Source of the DNA: Escherichia phage vB_EcoM_Lh1B | DNA length: 64,000 bases | Strand: one strand, 5' to 3' | Sequence record: OK428535.1 | In this document: positions 2,629-51,554 of the stretch, one piece after another | How the letters are laid out: every line of letters begins with the position of its first letter | How positions within the stretch are numbered: the stretch's first letter is position 1 | Translations under genes and position numbers: made by a program | The notes under the pieces: model-generated | What the model was told of the DNA's origin: nothing | What the model saw: only the letters and a program-made list of their open reading frames with translations | The model's database searches: none

Positions 2629-3948
2629 ATGATCAACTATAACAAACCTGTCATGCAGCTGGTTTGGGATCAGATTAATCGTGATAACCCGCAGCTCAAG
2701 AAACCACTCAACGCAACCAACGTGGCGTTATTACAAGGTCCTTTAACCAATGCCTTGCGCGATGGCCGCAACAGCCGTATAGTGGTAAACGGATTACAGG
2801 GTGGCGGTTACAGCGGTAAGATGGACATCTACTACGACCGCTTAAACCTTTCGCAGTATTTTAAAGGCGTCAGCGTACCGGTTAAAGTACCTTATCGGGC
2901 GACGTCCTACCGCGACATCATCGACCGGATTTCCGCAGCTTGTGGGCTGGTGCTTACTGCTGACGATTTAACGTATCCTGACAGCCAGTTTGCAATGATC
3001 ACTGTGGCAACGGGCGATCGGACGGTGGCGATTAAATCGGATAACCCCGCATTCACGGGTCACATTCCTATTAGCTTTATTCGTGAAGAGCCCAGCTTTG
3101 CCGACTTGTACCACACCACCGAAACCGGAGCTTGGGAACCCATGGATGTTTACAGCACGGTCTATCGACTCGACTGGAGCATGTACACCCAACAGATAAT
3201 CAATATCCCGATGGGTACCCCGCTGCGACTAAACAGTAACTCGTACATGACCCAGTTCATCGCGGCGCTGTCGGCATGGTCGGGCATCCCGTTCACTATC
3301 GGTAATGCTGCTACTGATAACCCGTATGACCTCTATGGGTATGTCGCTACACGCAATAACAACCCAGGCTTAGACCCTGATATGCGTGGGGAGTACAATT
3401 ACTGCGTGAAGTTGACGCCACCTGAGGATATGGGTAATCTCCGCCGTCCGTTCTTCTTGCACTTTGGTCCGAAAAATAACGTGGCCNATTTGGCGCAGGA
3501 AAAGGANGNCGAACGTTATGCGCGTTACATGAGGTTCCGGGAAACCAGCCCAAATTCGATGAGCGTCACGTTGTATCAAAACGAGTACGTGTTGACTCGG
3601 GCAGAATCGCCTGAAACTGCGGATGATTTAACGGGTTCCCCGTATGGCACTCGATACTGTACCGGGAGTATTCGACGGCTGATGCAACACGCGTTTCCGA
3701 CCGAAGAGATGTTCCAAGAAAGTATTGCTAACCGGCGTCGGGTACTGTACCACACTGCTTACACCACCACGACATCAGCTATTACTTACCAGGGACTATA
3801 CCGTAACGGATACCAATCCAAACAAATGACGAGCCTCTACTCGAATTACTGTAACTATTTCATCTATTACGACCCAAGCAAAGGCGGCTATATGGTCTAC
3901 AGTCCATATAGCAAAACCGCCCCGGTCCCTTGGTATCCACCGCTATAG
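2629..3948 (+). CDS. putative tail fibre / virion protein
   Basis: 439-aa ORF; C-terminal motif YYD..G.M...PY.K.AP.PW shared with the C-terminus of CDS 3963-6131. Confidence 0.6.
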   Translation: MINYNKPVMQLVWDQINRDNPQLKKPLNATNVALLQGPLTNALRDGRNSRIVVNGLQGGGYSGKMDIYYDRLNLSQYFKGVSVPVKVPYRATSYRDIIDRISAACGLVLTADDLTYPDSQFAMITVATGDRTVAIKSDNPAFTGHIPISFIREEPSFADLYHTTETGAWEPMDVYSTVYRLDWSMYTQQIINIPMGTPLRLNSNSYMTQFIAALSAWSGIPFTIGNAATDNPYDLYGYVATRNNNPGLDPDMRGEYNYCVKLTPPEDMGNLRRPFFLHFGPKNNVAXLAQEKXXERYARYMRFRETSPNSMSVTLYQNEYVLTRAESPETADDLTGSPYGTRYCTGSIRRLMQHAFPTEEMFQESIANRRRVLYHTAYTTTTSAITYQGLYRNGYQSKQMTSLYSNYCNYFIYYDPSKGGYMVYSPYSKTAPVPWYPPL

Positions 3949-12166: not shown

Positions 12167-13073
12167 TGTTCGCCGCCCGTTTACGCTTAGCAGAAATTAC
12201 ACGGTTGATGTAGTTATACGCATCAACGCCGATAGAACGCGCCAGGCGATTACAGCCGACTTCCAATATCTCTGGGGCGTTCTGAATTTGCTCCTGCGTA
12301 CCGTCGGCGTTAAGCCACAGCACTTCACTGCACGTGTTGCACTCGGTATCGAACATTTTACTGATCGCAAGCCCACATTCAGAATCGTTCTGCATGTTAA
12401 GGCGTTCGATATTGTCGAGTATTTTCCAATACCCGTACATGAAGTTCATGACGTGGTCTGGCGATAACGGTTTCGGCATCATCGCATCAAACAACAACGA
12501 CACACCACCTGGACGGTAATGATAGATTGCTCGGTGCAGCTCGATGAAATCTTCGTACCAGCGTTTATCGCCTAACTGGTCACGCGTCATCACACCCCAG
12601 GTGTAATAATTGTCCAGCTCGTACAGCACTTCCAGCGCTTCGTGATTACCACCGTTTACAAAGTTCATAAACGGACGTTCCGACTTCTTGTAGCCGTCAA
12701 TGGACACAAAGATAAGGTCGAACTGTTTCAGCAACGGCAGATGTGATTTACGCATCTTTAAACCGTTGGTGTACATGTGATGACGGAGGTTCGGATGAGA
12801 CTCCTTCAACTCGTTCACGAAGTCTTCAATCTTACGCTGCGCTAACAGCGGCTCACCGCCCGTCCAATGAATCTCACCGATATCCGGATTCTTCTCTAAA
12901 ATCGAGAGAATCTCTTCACGTTGAAACTCACGAGAAGTATCTTCTCTATCCATGTAATAAGCCCCTCCACAGAAGCTACAGTCTAAGTTACACTTAGAAG
13001 TTGCGACAACCGACAGAATTGACGGTTTGTCGTACAGTTCAGACGAGATCCTGGATTCTACTTGATCTGTCAT
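12159..13073 (-). CDS. radical SAM enzyme (second, shorter)
   Basis: CNLDCSFC Cx3Cx2C motif near the N-terminus; C-terminal ECNTCSE...GCN partial Cys cluster; stop overlaps the start of the downstream rSAM gene by 8 nt. Confidence 0.75.
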   Translation of the reverse strand: MTDQVESRISSELYDKPSILSVVATSKCNLDCSFCGGAYYMDREDTSREFQREEILSILEKNPDIGEIHWTGGEPLLAQRKIEDFVNELKESHPNLRHHMYTNGLKMRKSHLPLLKQFDLIFVSIDGYKKSERPFMNFVNGGNHEALEVLYELDNYYTWGVMTRDQLGDKRWYEDFIELHRAIYHYRPGGVSLLFDAMMPKPLSPDHVMNFMYGYWKILDNIERLNMQNDSECGLAISKMFDTECNTCSEVLWLNADGTQEQIQNAPEILEVGCNRLARSIGVDAYNYINRVISAKRKRAANNE

Positions 13074-36356: not shown

Positions 36357-36758
36357 ATGACTATCAAGAAGTTCTTACAAGCAGTAGTAGTTCTGGCCGC
36401 ATGTGGTATTGCAGCAACTTATGCTTTCGATAAGCCAGACGTGACTGAATACACATCAGCTGATTCGGATTATGGCATTGCACCGAATGAAAAACCGGAA
36501 CTGATGCGTGAGGTCGAACAGTTACAAATCTACAGACTGACGGACGGTAAGAACTGCACAGGGCTGGTTATCGCTGATAAGAAATTGAAAATGTATCAGC
36601 GGTTAATCGACATATCGTGCAATCAACCAAAAGTCACCTCGGTCAGTGTATCGCCACTGGAATTACCGAATTTGGTTGCTGTGAGCTTTTATCACAACGA
36701 TGTGCTCGTCGGTCGCATCACCCTCAATCGTGGAGATATCAAAAATGAAATGCAATAA
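36357..36758 (+). CDS. putative lipoprotein / secreted protein
   Basis: Signal peptide MTIKKFLQAVVVLAACG with lipobox-like LAAC. Confidence 0.55.
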   Translation: MTIKKFLQAVVVLAACGIAATYAFDKPDVTEYTSADSDYGIAPNEKPELMREVEQLQIYRLTDGKNCTGLVIADKKLKMYQRLIDISCNQPKVTSVSVSPLELPNLVAVSFYHNDVLVGRITLNRGDIKNEMQ

Positions 36759-37236
36759 CGTCAATCGCCNCTTGGCCAAAGTGGTGCTTTTTACTGTGCT
36801 GTTGATGGCAGTTGTTGTTGGGCTACGGATTTCTAAGGCACGCGCTGACGAATTCAGCGGGTTCCAGGGCAGTATTAACGGCAGCATTCCAGCATATACC
36901 CGCACCATCAATCTTAATGATAAGCCGTTCTGGTGCAATGCGCGTAAGCTGCTTAAGAAACAGTGTCGTGTAGTTGACATATCCTTCAACGGTCGTGTCG
37001 CTATCGTACACCGTCCTGGCGATAAAGATTGCCCAGGTGGTTGGTGGGGTGCAGTCGACCGTCACAATGGTGACGCGTTATGGCTTATCCCTAATCGTGA
37101 TGAACTATCAGTGGAGAAAATTTGCAGCAAAGATTTCAGGGCCGGTTTTGTACAGCGACCGGATACCAAAACTCTGGCCTCCATCGCTATGTACTACGGT
37201 ATGGAAACCATCAAAACAATCGACTATTCAGAATAA
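36745..37236 (+). CDS. secreted Cys-containing protein (paralog family member A)
   Basis: ATG at 36745 with GGAGA RBS; signal peptide; PFWC-x-C motif shared with 37259-37669. Confidence 0.55.
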   Translation: MKCNNVNRXLAKVVLFTVLLMAVVVGLRISKARADEFSGFQGSINGSIPAYTRTINLNDKPFWCNARKLLKKQCRVVDISFNGRVAIVHRPGDKDCPGGWWGAVDRHNGDALWLIPNRDELSVEKICSKDFRAGFVQRPDTKTLASIAMYYGMETIKTIDYSE

Positions 37237-37258
37237 CTCAAAAAATTGAGGTACTATT

Positions 37259-37669
37259 ATGAAACATTTTTTATTACCAGTTTTACTTGCTACTCTGGCC
37301 ATTAGCTTCTTCGCTCGCGCTGGAAGTATCGAGTTACCAAAAGTTGTTAACGATCACGAATACGGCGGGCCGTTCTGGTGCCAGAACTCTGACGTACAAG
37401 GCGGTAGCTGTCAGATCGTTGCGATGTCCGATAACAACCGTTACCTGTTAGTGAAAACGATGGGCGGTGTCGCATGTGGCGACCCTGAATACGGGGTTAT
37501 TAACATGGCAACAGGTCAGGCCGAATCCATGAACTACAATGATAACCAAGCCTGCAGTGGTGAAGCCGTTGCTGAGTTTACTCGCGACCCAGGTGATAAT
37601 GCCCTGACGGTTATCATGTACGACCCTACGATTAAGAAAAACGTGGGCATCAATAAACTCGACTTTTAA
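37259..37669 (+). CDS. secreted Cys-containing protein (paralog family member B)
   Basis: Signal peptide MKHFLLPVLLATLAISFFARA; GGPFWCQNSDVQGGSC motif. Confidence 0.6.
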   Translation: MKHFLLPVLLATLAISFFARAGSIELPKVVNDHEYGGPFWCQNSDVQGGSCQIVAMSDNNRYLLVKTMGGVACGDPEYGVINMATGQAESMNYNDNQACSGEAVAEFTRDPGDNALTVIMYDPTIKKNVGINKLDF

Positions 37670-37682
37670 GTAAGGAAACAAC

Positions 37683-38066
37683 ATGCGTGGACTTATGGGT
37701 ATTATCGCGGCGGTGTTCTTGACCGCTTCTGCTTCAGCTACAACCAGCGTAGAAGATTTACTGCCAGGCACACCGTATCAGTACAACCCGCCTTCATTCG
37801 AAGTCTGTACTGGCGACAATGGCAGATGTGAAGAAGTCAGCCGTCACGACGAGTATATCCTGGTCCACGCAAAGGGCGAGGAAACTTGTCCGGCTGGTTA
37901 CTACTTCTTGTTGAACTCAAAGGCACAAGAGATTGTGCCGGTAGAGACAATAACGTGCGACCCGACGCTTCGCGCGTCGCTCGCTTACAATACGAAAACC
38001 AAACAACGCCTCCTGGTTATTGAACAGCAAGGGGTGGTGCGTGGTTCAGTAGCGCTCGACCAGTAA
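37683..38066 (+). CDS. secreted Cys-containing protein (paralog family member C)
   Basis: Signal peptide MRGLMGIIAAVFLTASASA; similar Cys spacing (C.GDNGRC...C). Confidence 0.6.
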   Translation: MRGLMGIIAAVFLTASASATTSVEDLLPGTPYQYNPPSFEVCTGDNGRCEEVSRHDEYILVHAKGEETCPAGYYFLLNSKAQEIVPVETITCDPTLRASLAYNTKTKQRLLVIEQQGVVRGSVALDQ

Positions 38067-38750: not shown

Positions 38751-39377
38751 ATGAACGAGATTACCCTGATTCGTTTCATCGACGACATGGTGACGTGTCA
38801 GAAAGCGAATCGTCAGGATACCAAACTGCGTATCAATCTGATGGAAGAAGAGGTAGAAGGGTTTCTGGAATACCCGCGATTGGTGAAGTGGTTTAAAGAA
38901 GCGCTGCCGCGTAGCTGGGAACAGCTAGAAGCGTGGTTTGCTCTACCTATTGCAGAACGTAATCCCAATAATACGATCTTCACCGGAACTACTGCATTAG
39001 ATTTGGCTGGTTCGGTGGAGCAACCTAAACGTTTAGTTTTCTTCTACGTCAATGGCGATTCAATAATGGCTGATACAGTTAACTGGATTTCCGATGAGTT
39101 AACTGTAAACACCACTTTGGTCGGTAGCGCTGCTGATGCCTGGGTTGTTGGTCAGCACCAATCGCAACCGTACGAAGAAATCAAAACCGGTTATTTAATC
39201 CCGATATATCTCGACGGCGTGGCACCGGGTCGCAGCGCAGAACTGTTCAAATTCCTGCTTACTGAAACGTTAAAGGTTGTCGATTCTGATGCCGGGCGTG
39301 CGTGGTATGAATTAACCAAAGAGCGCACCGATAGTTTTTGGGAATCACTCGGACACCGTAAGTTTATTCCGCAATAA
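38751..39377 (+). CDS. hypothetical protein
   Basis: 208-aa ORF with AAGGA RBS. Confidence 0.55.
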   Translation: MNEITLIRFIDDMVTCQKANRQDTKLRINLMEEEVEGFLEYPRLVKWFKEALPRSWEQLEAWFALPIAERNPNNTIFTGTTALDLAGSVEQPKRLVFFYVNGDSIMADTVNWISDELTVNTTLVGSAADAWVVGQHQSQPYEEIKTGYLIPIYLDGVAPGRSAELFKFLLTETLKVVDSDAGRAWYELTKERTDSFWESLGHRKFIPQ

Positions 39378-39387
39378 CTCTCCTCTC

Positions 39388-39420
39388 TGGAACCCTTCGG
39401 GGTTCCATTTNTTCTTTTTT
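39388..39420 (+). terminator. rho-independent terminator
   Basis: TGGAACCC-ttcg-GGGTTCCA hairpin followed by a T-run. Confidence 0.55.
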
Positions 39421-39473
39421 ACGCATGACCTTTTGGATATGAACNNCTAATNCTTTCTCATTANAAGGCAAAC

Positions 39474-41984
39474 ATGCACAAGGTCGAACGTATCATTTTN
39501 AAAGNNTTTACCGGCATGGGGTTACATGAAANNNAAANNTTTGATTTCACCCTTAANTCAACCGTTACCANCATCCTCGGTGGCAACGGCTGCGGTAAAA
39601 CAAGCCTCCTGTCTGTTTTTCTCCCCTTAGCTCCAGCAAAATCAGAATTCCGTGAAGGTGGTTCCTACACTAACTACGCGTTAGTTGGGGACGACCGTCT
39701 TAAGTTTGAAGTCCTGCGTCGTGGCTCTTCTCTGTCTTGTAGTATTTTCAATATCACTAAAGGTGTCTCCATCGTAGACTCGGTAAACGCCAAAGTTTAC
39801 AACTCCATGGTGGAGCAATTAACCGGAATCACCAAAGAAATCAAAGAGTTAATTAATGGTGAGACCTTATTAACTGACGCCACTACCGAAGTTCGTCGTA
39901 AATGGTTTACGTTAATGTCAGAATCTGATCTGACGTACGTTGTTGGTTGCTATCGACGTTTGCGTAAACTCGCTTCCAGTTTAAGTGGGGCCATTGAGCA
40001 CACCGGCCGTAAAATCGGTGAGGCAAAAATGCGCGTGGTGGACGATGAAGAAGATCGTGCACGTTTAGAAGTTCGTTTGAAAGAACTCGATGCTGAGCTT
40101 CAGGAATTAAACCGCACAATTGAAGCGAGACCCGGTTTAGATAACGCCGTTTCGGTTGATAGTATCCGGAAACGCATTGCTTCGTTGCAACCGGCTGTAA
40201 AACTCATTATGGAACGTTATGGCGTTCTGCCTTCTGACGAACTGATTAACGAGTTTCAAAGTCGTGTGGTTGCCTGGCGTGAGCAAGCTGCCTCTGCTGA
40301 AACTGAATGCAACATGTACAATAAAGAGTTGTCACAGCTACTGGATGAGGAGTCGCGTCAAGCGTATCTGATGCGCAACCATACCGGTCTAAAACAAACA
40401 ATCGACAGCTTAAAACAGGAACTGGCAACGTTCCAACAGAACTGGATGTTCCCGGCTCTGTTTGAAGGTACCCGCATTGATGTGGATAGCATTCAGAACG
40501 CGTTAAACGATGCCTGTAACTGGAATTTACCGTTGTCCATGCATCTGGACCAGTTAAAGACAACAGATCGCCTGGGAGCGTTAGAGAAGCGTTTACAGGG
40601 TATGGATTTAACCTCTGCGGGTCTATCTGAAAAGCTGCAACGTTGTGAGAATGTGCTACACGGTTTATACCACGACCGTCAACACTTCTTAGAAACTGCA
40701 GAAGTTGATTGTCCACAGTGTAACCACCGTTTCCGTCCTGGGATTCGTAAGTCGTTACCTGAAATTGAAAAGGCCATCAACGATAATGAAGGTTGGAAGA
40801 AGCAGCTGAAAGACGAAATGGATAGTCTTTTGCGTGACCGCAAAGAGATTGAAGAGGACGTCCGTAGCTTACGTACGATTCGCGAAATCGTCATGTCGTA
40901 TTCCAACCATCCTGTTGTCGGTTTGTTTTTCCGTAAACTGCAGGAGCTGGATATCTTCACCACGGCGCGGGATCGTTACGGTGCCATTGCACGTGCCTTT
41001 ACTGAAGAGCTAGATTCGGCCATGATGTATCTGCGTCAATCGGCGAAGCTTGCAACAGCGGAACGGGAATGGCAAGAGGCTGTTGCCGCAGTAGGTAACG
41101 TTGATGGTGCGCTGAGCCAGAAAATTGAACATATCCGTTCACAACTGGACGGGGCTAACCGTCGACTGATAGAATACCGCAGACAAGCCAATGAGCTGGA
41201 ACGCGAAACCACCCAACTGCAACAAACCAAAGAAGCAATCGAACGTTTCCAAAAAGGCTACGAACATCTGGTATCGGAAATGAACATCTCCGTTAACAAC
41301 GTCGTGGTTCGTGAGTTGTTAAACCGACGCGAAGCGAAGCTCGATGCGTATACTTCAGCTCGTGAACGGTTTCGTCAAATGGAAGGGGCTATTGCACGTT
41401 TAGCGGAATTGGAAAAAGAGCAAGCTGAGTTGCTCAAAGAACACCATCNNGNCNGATTGATTATCAATGCCGTCTCACCCGAAAAAGGATTATTGCGTCG
41501 TTACTTTTATGCTGCGATTACCCGCATCATGGATTTAATGAATCGGTATATCGAAATGGTGTGGGCATATCCGATGCAGGTTATTCCATGCGATCTAACC
41601 GACGGGGATTTGGATTATACTTTCCCGGTGCGATTAAAAGACCATGAAGAACTGGTGCCGGATGTGAAGAAAGGTTCGAAGGCACAGCGTATTATCTTTA
41701 ACATGATGTTTCGTTTAACGGCGTATAAAGCGCTTGGTTTACAAAACTATCCTTTGTTNTTNGATNAANCCNCNNAAGGCATGGATGAANAACANAAAAA
41801 NCGCCTGGTCAACTTCTTTAAATCGTTGGNGTTGTTGGGGGAGTTTTCTNAANTGCTGGTCGTTTCGCATGAAGCGGAAGTTCATTCTAAACTTAACGAA
41901 GCCACCTACTGTGTCGTGGAGCCAGAAGGTGTAACGCTTCCACCGGTTTATAACGAAGGGGTAATAATCAAATATGCATCATAA
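39474..41984 (+). CDS. SbcC/Rad50-like recombination ATPase
   Basis: N-terminal Walker A ILGGNGCGKTSLL; very long central coiled coil with central CPQC zinc-hook-like motif; C-terminal Walker B/D-loop (..GMDE..) and LVVSHEAEV H-loop. Confidence 0.75.
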   Translation: MHKVERIIXKXFTGMGLHEXXXFDFTLXSTVTXILGGNGCGKTSLLSVFLPLAPAKSEFREGGSYTNYALVGDDRLKFEVLRRGSSLSCSIFNITKGVSIVDSVNAKVYNSMVEQLTGITKEIKELINGETLLTDATTEVRRKWFTLMSESDLTYVVGCYRRLRKLASSLSGAIEHTGRKIGEAKMRVVDDEEDRARLEVRLKELDAELQELNRTIEARPGLDNAVSVDSIRKRIASLQPAVKLIMERYGVLPSDELINEFQSRVVAWREQAASAETECNMYNKELSQLLDEESRQAYLMRNHTGLKQTIDSLKQELATFQQNWMFPALFEGTRIDVDSIQNALNDACNWNLPLSMHLDQLKTTDRLGALEKRLQGMDLTSAGLSEKLQRCENVLHGLYHDRQHFLETAEVDCPQCNHRFRPGIRKSLPEIEKAINDNEGWKKQLKDEMDSLLRDRKEIEEDVRSLRTIREIVMSYSNHPVVGLFFRKLQELDIFTTARDRYGAIARAFTEELDSAMMYLRQSAKLATAEREWQEAVAAVGNVDGALSQKIEHIRSQLDGANRRLIEYRRQANELERETTQLQQTKEAIERFQKGYEHLVSEMNISVNNVVVRELLNRREAKLDAYTSARERFRQMEGAIARLAELEKEQAELLKEHHXXXLIINAVSPEKGLLRRYFYAAITRIMDLMNRYIEMVWAYPMQVIPCDLTDGDLDYTFPVRLKDHEELVPDVKKGSKAQRIIFNMMFRLTAYKALGLQNYPLXXDXXXXGMDEXXKXRLVNFFKSLXLLGEFSXXLVVSHEAEVHSKLNEATYCVVEPEGVTLPPVYNEGVIIKYAS

Positions 41985-42165
41985 AGGTTGGCGCTTATGG
42001 GCTTGGTGGGGTTTCCAGTTCCTTCAGTTTGTTGTGATGGTACTGTACCTCTCCTTTTGTGCAACCGTAGTGGTTATCGCTGCGGTCGTTTATTTAGCTG
42101 CTGCTCTTAAAGAACGTCTGTTCGACACGCGTTGTGAGTGGCGAGATATGGGGGAACGGACATGA
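41974..42165 (+). CDS. small membrane protein (63 aa)
   Basis: One long hydrophobic segment FVVMVLYLSFCATVVVIAAVVYLAAAL; overlaps the SbcC-like stop. Confidence 0.4.
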   Translation: MHHKGWRLWAWWGFQFLQFVVMVLYLSFCATVVVIAAVVYLAAALKERLFDTRCEWRDMGERT

Positions 42166-42266
42166 TTGAAGGTATCGTATTAACCGGTATTGCACTGTGG
42201 TTGATTCGTGGTGCCTGGGGTTGGATTATCCGCACGAAAGGATGGGCGTTCCATGGCAACACGTAA
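42162..42266 (+). CDS. tiny TM peptide (34 aa)
   Basis: ATGA overlap with the upstream stop; MIEGIVLTGIALWLIRGAWGWIIRTKGWAFHGNT. Confidence 0.3.
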   Translation: MIEGIVLTGIALWLIRGAWGWIIRTKGWAFHGNT

Positions 42267-42444
42267 ACCACGTCGCTTAAAATCTTGGGNGGTTGTGGTA
42301 ATGCACACTGTAGTGTTGCTGGGTNTTTTCTTGTCTCGTGCCACNCCTGCCTTTTGGGGCTTAGTTGTTTTGGTGTTCTTAGAAGGGGTTTACTTCGGTA
42401 ATCTGTGGAGCAAGCCCCCCGNGTTTAAGGGACCCGGCTTATGA
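42253..42444 (+). CDS. small membrane protein (about 63 aa)
   Basis: ATG at 42253; two hydrophobic stretches (VVVMHTVVLLG, FWGLVVLVFLEGV); contains n. Confidence 0.35.
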   Translation: MATRKPRRLKSWXVVVMHTVVLLGXFLSRAXPAFWGLVVLVFLEGVYFGNLWSKPPXFKGPGL

Positions 42445-42572
42445 CAGTCGTGAATAGTGTCAACGCGGCGATGATTGNAACGGGTGCGTATGACGGTGCC
42501 ACATGGACAGATGTTGGTATCACGCTTATCATTTGCGCAATCGGAGCGTTTGTAGCAACATGGTTATTTTAG
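42441..42572 (+). CDS. tiny TM peptide (43 aa)
   Basis: ATGA overlap; C-terminal hydrophobic helix VGITLIICAIGAFVATWLF. Confidence 0.3.
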   Translation: MTVVNSVNAAMIXTGAYDGATWTDVGITLIICAIGAFVATWLF

Positions 42573-43018
42573 TGAAATGGGTTGGGTGTATCGTCTGTAG
42601 CCTGATACTAGGAGCGGGCGCATACGCCCTAGGCGCAATCCTTGCATTGACGCAAGGTTGGTTTTAACAGGAGGGTAATTACGAAGTGGGAGAAGTATCA
42701 TGTAACAGTGAAACAGTCTCTGATCCCGTGGTCGTGGGTTCAGGGGCGGCCGAGCCAACCCGGCGTATCGTTCTTTCGAGCGCGGGGATGGCTATAGGGT
42801 CTTCAAAGAACCTTCTAGCAGACATCGCGGAAGTCTGCGGGCCGGATGATTTTGCAGTTTCACGTACAGTCGGGGAAGACTGGCGTGGTAATCAGAAGCG
42901 CCATGAGCGAATGTGGCGACGGAAGGTTACCTCAGCATCGCGACGTTTTCAACGTCGTTGCTGATTATAGACACGGTTCCGATAGAGAACTGGTCTTCAC
43001 CTCTGGCGGTATACACCG

Positions 43019-43042
43019 CTTAAGTTTACCGGTAAACTTAAG
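43019..43042. promoter_or_regulatory. perfect 24-bp palindrome (candidate operator / protein-binding site)
   Basis: CTTAAGTTTACCGGTAAACTTAAG equals its own reverse complement; adjacent smaller inverted repeat GCGGT-ata-ACCGC at 43005-43018. Confidence 0.35.
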
Positions 43043-43110
43043 AAAACACAAACCCAATTCTTCGTTACTCNCTTTCATCGCAGGTGAAAGCTCACTTAGG
43101 AATTCAGCTC

Positions 43111-43599
43111 ATGGCCGAAATTGTCATTCTTTCCTCATCCTCAGATTTAACGGAAGCACAAAATAAACAGCTGTTGGGGCTGCATTATAAATTTCTGAAC
43201 CACCAACGTACCATACTCCATATCGAAAAAGGTGAGATTCCGAACCTCACTCTGGAGAAACTGTTGGCGGGGAACCGTGCTTGTGTTGCTCTGGAAGGGG
43301 GTACCCCTGTTGGTTACTGTTTGTATCGCGTAATCGCTGGGGTTCTGAAGATTCGTACGATGTTCGTGTCTGAAATGGCACGCCGTCGTAAAACGATGAC
43401 GCAGATTTTTGATGCGCTTGATGTGAATGNGCAGTTCACCAGTGCGCATGGGGGAATATACGCTTGCCAGGAAGCTGGTATTGCGTTCTTTACCNCTCGC
43501 GGTTTTGACAAGACCGTCTCTACAGACGGACAATGGCTTGAATTTAAGAAGCAGGTTCTTGCGGAAGCAGATGAACCTTTAAGGACTGCGGTAGCATAG
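43111..43599 (+). CDS. hypothetical protein
   Basis: ATG at 43111 with AGGAA RBS; 162 aa. Confidence 0.5.
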   Translation: MAEIVILSSSSDLTEAQNKQLLGLHYKFLNHQRTILHIEKGEIPNLTLEKLLAGNRACVALEGGTPVGYCLYRVIAGVLKIRTMFVSEMARRRKTMTQIFDALDVNXQFTSAHGGIYACQEAGIAFFTXRGFDKTVSTDGQWLEFKKQVLAEADEPLRTAVA

Positions 43600-43634
43600 T
43601 CCTGTTTTAGCACTCCTTACGATTATGCCTCACT

Positions 43635-43880
43635 ATGAGTGGGGTATTTTTTACGCGAGGAGTGCTATTTATGTTTCACCGTCCCGGGTTTTCAGCTTTA
43701 AACACCGATGTCTGTTGGGCTGAGTACGAGCGGGTGAAGGAGTTCTTACCCGTAAATCCTAAACACATCAACGTGGGTACTATCGGGCGTGTTGCGTTCG
43801 ATGACACTCCGCTGAGTACGTGTATTAAAGCTGCGCTTGGTACGCTGCCGGCGTCTATAGTGTTTGAGGAATTAAAATGA
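43635..43880 (+). CDS. hypothetical small protein
   Basis: 81-aa ORF ending with an ATGA overlap into the next gene. Confidence 0.4.
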   Translation: MSGVFFTRGVLFMFHRPGFSALNTDVCWAEYERVKEFLPVNPKHINVGTIGRVAFDDTPLSTCIKAALGTLPASIVFEELK

Positions 43881-44395
43881 CGGACATTCGTGTTGACATA
43901 TATGGGGAAATTCATACCACGGCCGATCGTAATCGTGTTGAATGGGCTATCATCGATAACCATCGGAAAAAACCATACGATTTTTTACTGTGTGAAGAAC
44001 TGGGGCCGTATGAACATCACACTGCAAAAGCGCAAGATAAGGCATTAAAGGAGAAGATGTACTCTATTGGACCCATGGGGCTGGAGTTGGCTAAGAAACT
44101 CGGCATCCCTGCTATTGGGATCGATGACTGGAGCGACGCAACCTACGCTAAAGATATCAAGGATAAAAAGGGAATGGCTGTAAACTTTAGCCGTTCTTTT
44201 TATATTNGTGAAACTAAAATGGTTGCAAAAATTAAAAAGTATATGGCAAAAGGGCGTTGTGCTGTTATGCTTGGCGACTCACACTTGCGCACCACGAAAA
44301 CTAAAGAGCTTGGTGATGCGTCCCTTATCTGGGAAACGTTTAAGGATAATCCTGAAGTGAAGTTTCACAGGAGCCCTAAACGCGAGATTGATTAA
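43877..44395 (+). CDS. hypothetical protein
   Basis: 172-aa ORF. Confidence 0.55.
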   Translation: MTDIRVDIYGEIHTTADRNRVEWAIIDNHRKKPYDFLLCEELGPYEHHTAKAQDKALKEKMYSIGPMGLELAKKLGIPAIGIDDWSDATYAKDIKDKKGMAVNFSRSFYIXETKMVAKIKKYMAKGRCAVMLGDSHLRTTKTKELGDASLIWETFKDNPEVKFHRSPKREID

Positions 44396-45635: not shown

Positions 45636-46358
45636 ATGTTTCNCACCATTTTATTTCTTCTGGTAGCAGTGACCACATTCAACAGCAACGCTTCTTACCA
45701 GACCACCAGTAACAAACACCAAAAAGAATTCGTCCTTATCCAGGACCAGTTCAATGAGATTAAACCTCTCATCGTCACCGCATCTCGAAAACAAGGCGTA
45801 CATGCCGGGATGCTCGCGACCACCATTTATCGTGAATCCCGTTTTAATAAAAACGTGGGTAAGAATAAATCGAGCAGTGCTAGTAGTGTTGTCCAAATGA
45901 CGACAGGCACTAAACGCTCCATGATACGTCTGTATGGGAAACAACTTAACATCCCAAAGAATGCGGACCTTAATAAACCGAAGTATGCTGTACAGCTTGC
46001 TGCCGTTTACATGAAACACATCGAGGATCATCTGACAAAACAACTCAAACGCAAGCCGAGCACAGCCGAAATCGCTTTAGGCTATCGCTTCGGTGAGGGT
46101 GCCGCTGTTGCGATGATTAAAAAGAAATCACCGGTCGGGAAACGCTGGATGGCNNGCNACNGAAAAGACGCAGCATTCTACGGTGCGAAAATGACACCAC
46201 CGAAAGNTGAAANACNNCNGNTTNNNTTTGNGNAGGNAGNCCANGNCCAACGNGTCGCCGAACTTCAGAAAATCTGGGATACGCTGTACACCAAAATATC
46301 ACCTGCGGCCGGTACATTACTGGCAAATAACACTATCATGAAAGGAGCATTGCTATGA
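45636..46358 (+). CDS. SLT-domain lytic transglycosylase-like protein with N-terminal signal peptide
   Basis: Hydrophobic N-terminus; YRESRFNKNVG...SSASSVVQMTTGT...YAVQLAAVYMKH...ALGYRFGEG matches the ES / Q-M / AYN-G motif order of SLT domains; n-rich C-terminal part. Confidence 0.5.
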   Translation: MFXTILFLLVAVTTFNSNASYQTTSNKHQKEFVLIQDQFNEIKPLIVTASRKQGVHAGMLATTIYRESRFNKNVGKNKSSSASSVVQMTTGTKRSMIRLYGKQLNIPKNADLNKPKYAVQLAAVYMKHIEDHLTKQLKRKPSTAEIALGYRFGEGAAVAMIKKKSPVGKRWMXXXXKDAAFYGAKMTPPKXEXXXXXFXXXXXXQXVAELQKIWDTLYTKISPAAGTLLANNTIMKGALL

Positions 46359-46953: not shown

Positions 46954-46986
46954 GGTCAGACCTTCGGGTCTGACCNCCTTTTATTT
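46954..46986 (+). terminator. rho-independent terminator
   Basis: GGTCAGACC-ttcg-GGTCTGACC hairpin followed by CTTTTATTT. Confidence 0.6.
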
Positions 46987-46999
46987 AATTCTTGGGTGT

Positions 47000-47266
47000 G
47001 TGTTCGTGAAACGTTTAATAAATATTCTCTACTGGATGGAGAAACGCTATAGCCACAACATTCCGATGATGTATAGTTTGTTATTCTCTACGGTAATGTT
47101 GGTGATCGGTGCGATTGTCGCGCATCTGATGGAACTCACGTCTCCATGGGCGCAACTCTTTCTTACCATCTGGATGTTGTTCTCAGGCTACCACATACGT
47201 GGTTTCATAACCCGATTCTTTCGCTGGCGTAGTACCTGGCACGTCTTTAATTCCGACCGTAACTAG
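47000..47266 (+). CDS. small membrane protein (GTG start)
   Basis: 88 aa with two hydrophobic segments; start codon GTG. Confidence 0.45.
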   Translation: MFVKRLINILYWMEKRYSHNIPMMYSLLFSTVMLVIGAIVAHLMELTSPWAQLFLTIWMLFSGYHIRGFITRFFRWRSTWHVFNSDRN

Positions 47267-50549: not shown

Positions 50550-51065
50550 GTGAGCATGATAGCATCAGTTTTCAAACTGCTTCCATTCTTACAAATGCTG
50601 TGGGAAGCATTTAAACCGGGCGAGGGGGAGAAAGTAACACGAGCCGGGAAAATAGTGACACTAGTGATAGTGGCACTGATCGCGTTCTCTGCATTTGTCT
50701 CATACGCCTACATTGTTCAATACCACACACTGGTTAGCGTTCAATCGCGTACTCAGTATCTGGAGATATCCTATAAGGAGCTAAAAGAGAAGTCCGATCA
50801 TGGCGAAGTGGAGAACAATAAGTTGTACGATCGTCTCTTCACGTGCCTGGGTTCTCGACCGCCATATGATGGTACCAAATCTCCAACAGGAACAGGCACT
50901 GAGGCCGCGGTTCCGCCTGTANAAANCAANCCNGTAANNCCNCCGGCNCCGTTNAATCCNTCTANCCCNCCNNCCAAGAAATACCNGGCCNCTTCTCNCC
51001 CGGTAGGGTCGCAGGAGGCAAATGATTTCCGACAGGAGATTATCAGTACGCTTAATAATCCATGA
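50550..51065 (+). CDS. membrane protein with periplasmic coiled coil (i-spanin candidate)
   Basis: TM segment IVTLVIVALIAFSAFVSYAYIV followed by charged helical region (ISYKELKEKSDHGEVENNKLYDRL); n-rich C-terminus. Confidence 0.4.
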   Translation: MSMIASVFKLLPFLQMLWEAFKPGEGEKVTRAGKIVTLVIVALIAFSAFVSYAYIVQYHTLVSVQSRTQYLEISYKELKEKSDHGEVENNKLYDRLFTCLGSRPPYDGTKSPTGTGTEAAVPPVXXXXVXXPXPXNXSXXXXKKYXAXSXPVGSQEANDFRQEIISTLNNP

Positions 51066-51074
51066 GGAGCATAC

Positions 51075-51554
51075 ATGAAGTTATTTTTGGTGGCGATACT
51101 GGTGCTATTGTTGACAGGATGCCCTGGAGCCATCCGTCACGTAGACCCAGATTACTCCTCAACCGGAGATTGGCCTTTTCGTCCTTTAGAACACCCACCA
51201 GTTTATGCTGGTGGGAACAGTCCTGAGGCGAAAAAGCTGGCAGGGAAAATGTTTGTTGCGGATGTGAACGCTTATGCTTATTACGTTTATCTGTACGCTA
51301 AGTCGTTGAACAATTACGCAGAAGCTAAGGGGTGGCGCACCCCGATGGCCGCACCGCTTTGTGAAGAGTTTATTCGCCCCACTCTTCATGATATACCCTC
51401 CGGGATATATCTCGACCCTGGTTCTCGTAGCCCTCAAGACATTAGTCGTGATTTGTCACGACAGATTAAGTCNCTCATTCGCAGCTATCGCGAAGACAGA
51501 GAGTCTTTTAATCATGCCTACGAACGGCACAAAAGTAGTTGCCTTGTGCAATGA
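51075..51554 (+). CDS. lipoprotein (o-spanin candidate)
   Basis: MKLFLVAILVLLLTGC lipobox immediately downstream of the membrane protein. Confidence 0.55.
   Translation: MKLFLVAILVLLLTGCPGAIRHVDPDYSSTGDWPFRPLEHPPVYAGGNSPEAKKLAGKMFVADVNAYAYYVYLYAKSLNNYAEAKGWRTPMAAPLCEEFIRPTLHDIPSGIYLDPGSRSPQDISRDLSRQIKXLIRSYREDRESFNHAYERHKSSCLVQ

Follow-up and report, generated by a model that had tools for sequence, protein, structure and literature searches.

A conserved array of five overlapping genes for small membrane-type proteins downstream of an SbcC-like gene in a Seoulvirus jumbo phage

Directly 3' of an SbcC-like gene in a Seoulvirus, an SPN3US-like nucleus-forming jumbo phage, five short open reading frames (ORFs), here termed O1 to O5, are tiled on the plus strand. 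This locus, which lies within the 64-kb genome segment that was analysed as a whole (the window), raises the question of whether such minute frames are genes at all and, if so, to which process their products contribute. An earlier note, made from the sequence alone, had described them as a chain of tiny membrane peptides and had proposed holin/antiholin-like or host-membrane-targeting functions.

All five ORFs were recovered on the plus strand where the earlier note had placed them, with the end of O5 at 42667 (Table 1). The chaining described there holds insofar as all junctions overlap, by 1 to 14 nt, while inspection of the individual junctions confined the ATGA type to O1/O2 and O3/O4; SbcC and O1 overlap by 11 nt, and O2 and O3 by 14 nt. 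At the O4/O5 junction the overlap comprises 1 nt (TAGTG) if O5 starts at GTG 42572, as had been assumed, and 13 nt if it starts at ATG 42560. The frame itself is real, but the upstream ATG, yielding 35 instead of 31 aa, appears to be the more likely start, as it is common to the relatives and annotated in EC001. Shine-Dalgarno sites were found upstream of O1 to O4, that of O2 reading GGGGGA.

Table 1. Features of the SbcC-to-GNAT region and of two genes further downstream (window positions; + denotes the plus strand).
Feature	Position	Strand	Description
Intrinsic terminator	39388–39407	+	TTCG tetraloop hairpin and T-run; closes the upstream unit, just 5' of the SbcC-like gene
Putative phage-RNAP promoter motif	39416–39441	+	TTTTTAC-N12-TATG; lies 33 nt before the start of SbcC
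SbcC/SMC-like ATPase (SPN3US gp186)	39474–41984	+	First gene of the unit
O1 (SPN3US gp187)	41974–42165	+	63 aa; basic N-terminus, hydrophobic stretch of 33–37 residues (probable hairpin), charged C-tail
O2	42162–42266	+	34 aa; N-terminal helix, then conserved W-x-W-I-I-(R/K)-x-K-G-W-A-F tail
O3 (SPN3US gp188)	42253–42444	+	63 aa; two-helix hairpin, strongly basic N-terminus
C6 homopolymer tract	42415–42420	+	Within O3; C5 in four relatives
O4 (SPN3US gp189)	42441–42572	+	43 aa without basic residues; GAY(D/E)GxxWTD conserved at the N-terminus; C-terminal helix to the final residue
O5	42560–42667	+	35 aa from ATG 42560; nearly all hydrophobic; invariant C-terminal ALTQGWF
O6	42686–42964	+	92-aa soluble, non-membrane protein; same unit as O1–O5; strong AGGAGGG Shine-Dalgarno
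GNAT acetyltransferase gene	43111–43599	+	Final gene of the unit; matches to Acetyltransf_1 and Acetyltransf_7 fall below the Pfam cut-off
Intrinsic terminator	43625–43647	+	Closes the SbcC-to-GNAT unit
Second promoter-like motif	43648–43673	+	TTTTTAC-N13-TATG, directly after the preceding terminator
SLT gene	45636–46358		Likely endolysin gene
Gene for two-helix protein	47000–47266		88 aa; basic C-terminus

The coding status of the array is borne out by several signatures of selection. Compared with SPAsTU, in which all five ORFs are intact at 68.6% nucleotide identity, dN/dS amounts to 0.30 for O1, 0.065 for O2, 0.22 for O3, 0.075 for O4 and 0.47 for O5. Across comparisons, O2 is the most strongly constrained (0.065–0.12), O3 ranges from 0.18 to 0.22 within Seoulvirus, and O5 from 0.3 to 0.5, with 0.69 between phiEaH2 and Asesino. 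The variable sites of the array ORFs among four close genomes fall on codon positions 1, 2 and 3 in a ratio of 12/3/37, and all five frames are intact in each of six genomes of the SPN3US species. In addition, the ORF frame obtained the highest codon-usage score of all six frames for each gene, for O5 by a slim margin, and a tiling of hydrophobic ORFs like the observed one was reached in only 4 of 5000 dinucleotide-preserving shuffles. O1 to O5 are hence genuine conserved genes for small membrane-type proteins, and all five are under purifying selection; the earlier note had regarded a lack of conservation in related genomes as the finding that would speak against them, and the frames are kept in relatives. 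It is extremely improbable that the array, wholly or in part, consists of untranslated frames that arose by chance in a spacer behind SbcC: the ORFs are very short, several records omit them and the coding statistics of O5 are weak, but purifying selection and third-position bias extend to all five frames, which persist at 69% nucleotide identity and across genera, Shine-Dalgarno sites exist, the shuffle test disfavours chance, and an Rfam search returned no match that would offer an RNA alternative. For O5, the dN/dS values given above, marginal codon usage and the lack of a significant PHROG match make up a weak coding signal.

The hydrophobic character of the peptides emerges from hydropathy. 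Transmembrane (TM) segments were called by a simple hydropathy scan with a crude threshold, combined with charge distribution. By this measure the one or two hydrophobic helices that had been ascribed to every peptide were found in O1, O3, O4 and O5, while the helix of O2 is weaker, lying just below the threshold in the window and above it in SPAsTU. O1 and O3 would accordingly be helical-hairpin proteins, and O2, O4 and O5 single-helix peptides; insertion of all five into the host cytoplasmic membrane is predicted. For O1 (gp187), whose C-tail carries a conserved CEWR, a TM prediction had already been made (PMC5105663).

The third gene of the array has been altered. Its homopolymer tract comprises six C residues in the window and in EC001, and five in SPN3US, SPLA1a, SPFM4 and Proteus phage 7. 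In the window, a +1 frameshift turns the conserved O3 C-terminus, ...PPRLRDPAYDSRE, into ...PPxFKGPGL, and the C-terminus is also frameshifted in EC001. The extra C causes both the frameshift and the O3/O4 ATGA overlap, the latter being a derived state. Moreover, O3 is deleted in pEa_SNUABM_29, so that deletion in one relative and frameshifting in the window mark this gene as dispensable.

The array families are confined to the SPN3US-like clade in IMG/VR and among 1.84e9 representative proteins, and an exhaustive search of the latter returned only two clusters for O3. Within the clade, four genera have a detectable O2 and O5, while O1 and O3 occur in two, namely Seoulvirus and Erskinevirus, and O4 in Seoulvirus only, being absent from the Erskinevirus, Machinavirus and Wellingtonvirus loci. 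Matches of O2 in Kwan, pSal04 and Caitlin range from E 1e-7 to 3e-4, and those of O5 in the same three genomes have E 2e-11 for Kwan, 2e-7 for Caitlin and 0.01 for pSal04. O2 and O5 thus form the conserved core, and O4 is a Seoulvirus addition. Kwan possesses an additional annotated gene of 128 aa within the array, and in Derbicusvirus non-homologous TM genes occupy its position. Neither the array nor a TM gene directly after SbcC was found in PA7 (phiKZ-like), Goslar, RSF1, Simmy50, OBP or PS119XW. O1 to O4 belong, with full-length profile matches, to phrog_16515 (E 5e-29), phrog_13448 (E 1e-8), phrog_18173 (E 1e-31) and phrog_29196 (E 2e-29), all labelled 'unknown function', so that they already figure in a catalogue as hypothetical phage proteins, while the array as a unit has not previously been described. 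The PHROG search with O5 gave no significant match, the best being a weak one to phrog_8626 (E 0.016). Annotation is patchy, the earlier note having called such arrays rarely annotated: Seoulvirus records annotate between none and all five of the ORFs, and O2, which lacks annotation in SPN3US and EC001, is usually missed.

A predicted operon surrounds the array. The hairpin of the upstream terminator is kept in position in phiEaH2, Asesino, Caitlin, Kwan, pSal04, CR5, EarlPhillipIV and Phobos, where the TTCG loop is unchanged and the stem differs in sequence by compensatory changes. It is followed by a TTTTTAC-N12-TATG motif ahead of SbcC, which, together with its spacing, is preserved across genera at each of the 12 loci that were compared. 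The 64-kb window holds two matches to the motif, versus 0.24 expected, and both directly follow terminators. In phiKZ, the middle promoter is an AT-rich element at -24 and the late promoter is T-3ATG+1 (PMC7598289); the motif resembles both, which suggests middle or late transcription. The promoter assignment leans on this short motif and the phiKZ analogy. Between the two terminators, a plus-strand scan revealed no comparably strong interior one, the weaker matches all lying in coding sequence, e.g. at 42064–42086 in O1 and 42640–42657 in O5. A single mRNA would hence start at the phage-RNAP-type promoter, cover SbcC, O1 to O5, O6 and the GNAT gene and end at the downstream terminator, and the start/stop overlaps would couple translation of the five small genes to SbcC and to one another.

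Starting from the observed coding status, hydrophobic architecture, overlaps and distribution and from the predicted operon boundaries, we tentatively favour, at somewhat less than even confidence, the explanation that these presumably co-transcribed genes constitute a clade-specific accessory inner-membrane module, which is neither the primary holin nor an SbcCD anchor. Function, as well as any hetero-oligomer formation of O1 to O5, is judged from context. Such a module would fit the many genes of the block that are directed at the envelope, namely those for four secreted proteins, the Sec-exported SLT, the two-helix protein and the spanin-like pair, and its likeliest task would be a membrane modification that benefits the phage, for instance superinfection exclusion in the manner of T4 Imm/Sp or modulation of lysis timing. 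Imm and Sp are likewise small inner-membrane proteins encoded among replication genes and not with lysis genes; imm, situated between genes 42 and 43, specifies 83 aa with two hydrophobic segments. However, imm is an early gene, while the motif preceding the SbcC unit looks middle or late; if the unit is indeed transcribed at that stage, exclusion would set in late during infection. Searches for a superinfection-immunity family among O1 to O5 yielded no Pfam match at E <= 1, and BLASTP against T4 Imm was not significant. By the evidence available, the array represents no new type of system but an uncharacterised accessory module such as large phages commonly carry, and the finding is solid yet fairly ordinary for a phage of this size. 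The analysis provides a clear-cut gene model for five small membrane proteins whose annotation is incomplete in most records, sorts core (O2, O5) from dispensable (O3, O4) genes and, by setting the array in a predicted operon near candidate lysis genes, supplies a small and tractable list of targets for the SPN3US genetic system.

With the likely endolysin gene only some 3 kb further downstream, a role in lysis, perhaps a regulatory or accessory one, is plausible. Specifically, one or both of the hairpin proteins O1 and O3 might serve as a class II holin of the pinholin type, and the single-helix peptides might act as its antiholins or regulators; they would depolarise the membrane and thereby activate the Sec-exported SLT endolysin. 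Like the class II holins, pinholins and antiholins typified by S68/S71 of phage 21, O1 and O3 are of small size (about 63–67 aa) and carry two helices and a charged, putatively cytoplasmic C-terminus, but these gross features are generic among small TM proteins and not diagnostic. The SLT is homologous to the catalytic domain of the phiKZ endolysin gp144 (E 7e-11), so that a muralytic enzyme related to a member of the gp141–gp144 lysis cassette of phiKZ is encoded within a few kb of the array. Since it carries a predicted cleavable Sec signal, it would need only a membrane-depolarising partner; a holin is annotated in none of the Seoulvirus records examined, and the lysis genes of this genome are scattered without a tight cassette. 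We nevertheless consider the proposal unlikely, and the holin/antiholin reading of the earlier note found no backing: searches of Pfam, NCBIfam and PHROGs gave no holin family for any of O1 to O5 at E <= 1 and no other lysis family, and none of the five resembles phiKZ gp142. This protein, the sole experimentally defined chimallivirus holin, is a 131-aa class III holin with a large cytoplasmic domain; its lethality is PMF-triggered, lambda Sam7 complementation and DNP triggering assays were used to study it, its gene adjoins that of the endolysin, and its cassette was not defined until 2026 (PMC12894885). The window encodes no similar protein. The array, on the contrary, is not adjacent to muralytic or spanin genes but is enclosed with SbcC and the GNAT gene between predicted terminators, with the SLT gene beyond the downstream one, 3 kb from the array, and the spanin-like pair 8 kb downstream. 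Better candidates for lysis are found 3–9 kb downstream, at 45.6–51.6 kb, i.e. the SLT, the spanin-like pair and the two-helix protein, which is encoded nearer to the SLT. Moreover, a holin role of O3 is opposed by its deletion or frameshifting in the genomes named above, and O4 is genus-specific.

The five peptides could also be anti-defence or host-physiology effectors, which block or mimic host membrane machines that are regulated by small proteins, or which neutralise membrane-acting abortive-infection effectors. The region from SbcC to the SLT gene is a variable accessory island, whose gene content differs between genera and which, besides the GNAT gene, holds macro-domain genes, both typical of host-modifying functions. 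The distribution is narrow and evolution at the DNA level is fast, identity to SPN3US being 92.9% over the array region (41900–42720) versus 95.2% over the 3 kb spanning it (41000–44000). We regard this reading, too, as unlikely, because its case is drawn purely from context and PADLOC profiles (no match of O1 to O5 at E <= 1) as well as the other family searches gave no defence match. To our knowledge, TM anti-defence peptides are without precedent in this phage group.

Quite improbable, in our assessment, is a more ambitious model in which the five peptides assemble into one hetero-oligomeric inner-membrane complex that is produced in a fixed ratio with the SbcC nuclease subunit. Such a complex could be a new multi-component pinholin/antiholin system that gates the Sec-exported SLT endolysin in nucleus-forming phages, or a membrane device by which envelope events are tied to DNA processing or to late-cycle status.

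A physical link to SbcC is conceivable from gene order. O1, perhaps with others, might hold the phage SbcC/SbcD nuclease at the membrane or control it there, as envisaged for T4 gp47.1 with gp46/gp47; the parallel between gp187 and T4 has been raised before in a study that also assigned SPN3US gp186 to SbcC and found it to be essential (PMC5105663). The O1 start overlaps the SbcC stop, and a small TM gene lies at most 17 nt to either side of this stop in all five genera of the SPN3US-like clade, namely Seoulvirus, Erskinevirus, Machinavirus, Wellingtonvirus and Derbicusvirus, even where no homology to O1 is detectable; that the coupling is kept despite non-homology could point to a real link. 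Similarly, T4 gp47.1 is a hydrophobic, predicted membrane protein of 46 aa, and its gene shares 4 nt with gene 47, a member of the SbcD/SbcC family. However, 47.1 precedes gene 47 (SbcD) in the Mre11/Rad50 operon 47.1-47-46.2-46.1-46, whereas O1 follows SbcC; T4 has one such gene and no phage nucleus, the window has five, and the anchoring role of gp47.1 is itself only a proposal. The association is missing from the phiKZ-like, Goslar, OBP, RSF1, Agricanvirus and PS119XW loci, and O1 to O5 bear no similarity to T4 47.1 (BLASTP E >= 2, profile E >= 7). In addition, a phage nucleus has been shown for Asesino (PMC11724907). Since the clade forms this structure, DNA metabolism would presumably proceed within a protein shell and at a distance from the inner membrane. 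As this tethering model would, moreover, account for O1 only and not for the five-gene array, we deem it very improbable.

Downstream of the membrane-type genes, O6 belongs to phrog_15402 (E 1e-11) and features a conserved basic C-terminus, EDWRGNQKRHERMWRxKVTSASRRFQRRC; in this region the SPN3US and EC001 records annotate different frames.

On several agreeing lines of sequence evidence, the five small hydrophobic open reading frames that directly follow the SbcC-like gene (O1-O5) are real genes, and they belong to a familiar kind, the small uncharacterised membrane proteins that a large phage encodes. The source phage is a jumbo phage of the SPN3US group, roughly 240 kb in size and belonging to a group related to phiKZ, and the 3-kb stretch around the array shares 95-97% identity with Escherichia phage vB_EcoM_EC001 (EC001), Salmonella phage SPN3US and some 30 further Seoulvirus genomes. 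Existing catalogues list four of the five genes as hypothetical proteins and PHROGs. Moreover, the transmembrane (TM) nature of gp187, the SPN3US counterpart of O1, and the essentiality of gp186, the SbcC-like gene, have been noted before (PMC5105663), and gp186-189 are unmentioned in the supplements of PMC7411985. New are a gene model that covers all five genes, with O2, which is usually overlooked, and a corrected O5 start, the evidence of selection on each of the five frames, the core versus variable gene structure over genera, the predicted operon context, and the examination of the holin idea in the light of the recently defined phiKZ lysis cassette.

All five plus-strand frames described in the earlier note were found in the window, and the chain of ATGA/GTGA-type overlaps proposed there stands in part: ATGA junctions exist for O1/O2 and O3/O4 only, the overlaps of SbcC with O1 and of O2 with O3 amounting to 11 nt and 14 nt, respectively. 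The GTG start suggested for O5 is less likely, as it is devoid of a Shine-Dalgarno sequence and an upstream ATG, most likely the true start, is common to relatives and annotated in EC001. According to a hydropathy scan, O1 begins with a basic N-terminus, continues with a hydrophobic stretch of 33-37 residues, probably a hairpin, and ends in a charged C-tail; in O2, the N-terminal helix is weaker and a tail rich in Trp and Lys comes after it; and O3 combines a very basic N-terminus with two helices. O4 contains no basic residues and its C-terminal helix extends to the final residue, and O5 is hydrophobic over almost its entire length. Paralogy within O1-O5 was not found.

Features of the O1-O5 region and its surroundings in the window
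Feature	Coordinates	Strand	Remarks
Four consecutive signal-peptide genes	36357-38066	+	133, about 163, 136 and 127 aa; two genes upstream of SbcC
Strong intrinsic terminator	39388-39407	+	between gp185 and SbcC
TTTTTAC-N12/13-TATG sites	39416-39441, 43648-43673	+	each directly after one of the two strong terminators
SbcC/SMC-like gene (SPN3US gp186)	39474-41984	+	5' neighbour of array
O1	41974-42165	+	63 aa
O2	42162-42266	+	34 aa
O3	42253-42444	+	63 aa
Poly-C tract	42415-42420	+	C6 in window and EC001; C5 in SPN3US, SPLA1a, SPFM4 and Proteus phage 7
O4	42441-42572	+	43 aa
O5	42560-42667	+	35 aa from ATG 42560, begins MVILVKW; rival start GTG 42572
O6	42686-42964	+	92 aa; strong AGGAGGG Shine-Dalgarno; phrog_15402
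GNAT acetyltransferase gene	43111-43599	+	3' of array
Strong intrinsic terminator	43625-43647	+	3' of GNAT gene
SLT transglycosylase	45636-46358	+	240 aa; match to gp144 catalytic domain, E 7e-11
88-aa protein	47000-47266	+	two hydrophobic helices, basic C-terminus; after terminator 46954-46975, downstream of SLT
i-spanin-like protein	50595-51065	+	N-terminal TM helix; helical, then Pro-rich periplasmic part; phrog 8719 (unknown function)
o-spanin-like lipoprotein	51075-51554	+	lipobox LLTGC; phrog 8165 (unknown function)

The ATGA junction of O3 and O4 is a derived state caused by an extra C in the poly-C tract near the end of O3. This insertion shifts the last 13 O3 codons, turning ..PPRLRDPAYDSRE into ..PPxFKGPGL, and the window O3 thereby loses the C-terminal motif (R/L)LRDPAYD(S/N)RE, which is the best-conserved part of O3 between Seoulvirus and Erskinevirus. 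The C6 tract may represent a genuine truncation allele, O3 being dispensable, or it may stem from slippage or from a sequencing error at the homopolymer in both records. At its other end, the window O3 carries three substitutions, R3T, G7R and F11S, that are unique to it among the six SPN3US-species genomes compared. Scattered over the 64-kb window are 315 N characters, in single positions and short runs; five of these lie inside the array, where they yield X residues in O3 and O4 and alter no reading frame.

Conservation of the frames in relatives, on which the earlier note had made its proposal depend, was confirmed. O1-O5 are intact in six close genomes (the window, SPFM4, Proteus phage 7, EC001, SPN3US and SPLA1a), and all five are open and annotated in the diverged Seoulvirus SPAsTU, although DNA identity is only 68.6%. 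Between EC001 and SPAsTU, the dN/dS ratios (Nei-Gojobori) are 0.30 for O1, 0.065 for O2, 0.22 for O3, 0.075 for O4 and 0.47 for O5. Counted in the frame of each ORF, the 51 variable sites in four close genomes split 12/3/37 over codon positions 1/2/3, and by codon-usage log-odds its own frame is the best of six for each ORF, the margin for O5 being small. In addition, Shine-Dalgarno-like sequences precede O1-O4, and when the 694 nt were shuffled 5000 times with dinucleotides preserved, the observed tiling by hydrophobic ORFs was reached only 4 times. Since Rfam returned no matches across 39300-44000, an RNA element offers no alternative for the array.

In order to follow the array across phages, syntenic loci were located via the SbcC C-terminus and the DNA 3' of SbcC was then read. 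Seoulvirus possesses O1-O5, with O3 absent from Erwinia phage pEa_SNUABM_29, and Erskinevirus (phiEaH2, Asesino) has O1, O2, O3 and O5 and is devoid of O4. Machinavirus (Caitlin, pSal-SNUABM-04) and Wellingtonvirus (Kwan) feature 4-5 small TM ORFs at the array position, among which local profiles recovered O2 (E 1e-7 to 3e-4) and O5 (E 2e-11 to 1e-2), the proteins that occupy the places of O1 and O3 giving top-ranked but non-significant matches; in Kwan, an annotated 128-aa gene lies within the array. Derbicusvirus (CR5, EarlPhillipIV, Phobos) encodes other TM proteins at this position. From this genus distribution, O2 and O5 therefore constitute a conserved core, O1 and O3 are common to two genera, and O4 was added in Seoulvirus. 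At the six loci from distant chimalliviruses, PA7 (phiKZ-like), Goslar, RSF1, Simmy50, OBP and PS119XW, the array is missing after SbcC, and the idea that SbcC is generally linked with a TM gene downstream of it in chimalliviruses was rejected on these loci. IMG/VR scans with O2 and O3 profiles retrieved only SPN3US, phiEaH2 and one Asesino-like contig, alignments including Machinavirus and Wellingtonvirus being too divergent for scanning. Word-indexed searches with O1 and O3 returned Seoulvirus proteins only, and when 1.84 billion representatives were searched exhaustively with O3 by HMMER, the only gains were the Erskinevirus cluster and two long TM proteins that are spurious. No genuine homologue from beyond the clade emerged from these searches.

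The array appears to belong to a larger transcription unit. Between the strong terminators upstream of SbcC and downstream of the GNAT gene, none of comparable strength was detected; weaker interior plus-strand matches, e.g. at 42064-42086 (in O1) and 42640-42657 (in O5), all lie inside coding sequence. In every genus examined (five genera), the upstream hairpin keeps its position and TTCG loop, with compensatory stem changes, and in 12/12 loci it is followed by TTTTTTAC, 12-14 nt, (A/T)TAT(G/A) and then a conserved leader. The motif TTTTTAC-N10-15-TATG has 2 exact sites in the 64-kb window versus 0.24 expected. In phiKZ, an AT-rich element is present near -24 in middle promoters, and T(-3)ATG(+1) in late ones (PMC7598289); the T-run in the present motif lies at -26 to -21 relative to the G of TATG (manual count). 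The terminator and motif pairs have the appearance of punctuation marks at which a terminator and a promoter for the phage's own RNA polymerase are combined. From the terminators and the conserved motif, we infer one unit SbcC-O1-O2-O3-O4-O5-O6-GNAT with boundaries predicted from sequence; the non-virion RNA polymerase of the phage would transcribe it during the middle or late phase, with translation coupled along the SbcC-O1-O5 chain. Sigma-70-type promoters showed no excess over shuffles, which is what a phage with RNA polymerases of its own would be expected to show. Just 5' of the SbcC Shine-Dalgarno sequence lies a leader element, CTAATACTTTyTCATTAG (39447-39464), shared by Seoulvirus, Erskinevirus and partly Machinavirus; its interpretation as a 5'-UTR hairpin (CTAAT...ATTAG) was rejected, as it forms no stable fold.

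Any estimate of function is conditional on O1-O5 being expressed. At E <= 1, Pfam, NCBIfam and PADLOC provided no holin, superinfection-immunity, toxin or defence family for O1-O5, and PHROGs assigned O1-O4 to four families of 'unknown function' and O5 to none. Likewise, O1-O5 lack similarity to T4 gp47.1, T4 Imm and the phiKZ holin gp142. Tentatively, O1-O5 may form an accessory inner-membrane module which alters the membrane of the infected cell and is not the lysis trigger, for instance by Imm/Sp-like exclusion or by fine control of lysis timing. This reading is suggested by the narrow distribution, the adjoining GNAT and macro-domain genes and the patchy gene content, as O3 is lost or frameshifted, O4 is genus-specific, Kwan bears an insertion and Derbicusvirus a replacement.

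A holin/antiholin system proper, as envisaged in the earlier note, is unlikely, given that no holin-family match emerged and that O1-O5 are neither the closest nor the most conventional holin candidates. The phiKZ lysis cassette, which has been defined by experiment, comprises i-spanin gp141, o-spanin gp141.1, class III holin gp142, regulator gp143 and endolysin gp144 (PMC12894885). A cassette of this type in the window was rejected, since, of the cassette proteins searched, the catalytic domain of gp144 alone was matched. The matching SLT transglycosylase displays a classical, cleavable Sec signal, MFRTILFLLVAVTTFNSNA|SYQ, where gp144 has its peptidoglycan-binding domain, and is likely the secreted endolysin of the SPN3US-like clade. 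OBP also harbours a syntenic signal-peptide SLT shortly after SbcC. The 88-aa protein encoded downstream of SLT, which is restricted to Seoulvirus, unannotated in most records and without a PHROG, is by its predicted features a more conventional holin candidate than the O1-O5 array, and two adjacent genes further downstream have the look of an i-spanin/o-spanin pair. Owing to these genes and the signal-peptide genes upstream of SbcC, the plus-strand block at 36-52 kb is unusually rich in envelope-directed products, a theme that O1-O5 fit. The four signal-peptide genes form a cluster coding for secreted or periplasmic phage proteins, two of which (phrog_8968, phrog_5248) are distant paralogues.

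A role of O1-O5 as anti-defence or host-physiology effectors is as doubtful as the holin reading. A dedicated multi-subunit membrane complex, which would be coupled to SbcC expression or gate the Sec-exported endolysin, seems rather improbable. Most improbable is a membrane partner of SbcCD, raised for gp187 by analogy with T4 gp47.1 (PMC5105663): 5/5 genera of the clade have a TM gene directly at the SbcC stop, even where it is non-homologous to O1, but distant relatives are without this association, and DNA metabolism of these phages is expected within the phage nucleus, which has been demonstrated in Asesino, a relative of the SPN3US group (PMC11724907).

Between O6, the soluble ORF that follows the array, and the GNAT gene lies a 24-bp perfect palindrome, CTTAAGTTTACCGGTAAACTTAAG (43019-43042), which is missing from more distant relatives, imperfect in SPN3US and SPLA1a, and perfect in EC001. 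O6 itself was found in Seoulvirus and in Caitlin (gp200), and its C-terminus, EDWRGNQKRHERMWRxKVTSASRRFQRRC, is conserved and very basic. Because other frames are annotated over it in SPN3US (12339-12461 of sequence L019) and EC001 (3347-3667 of sequence L001), the O6 region is probably mis-annotated in these two records.
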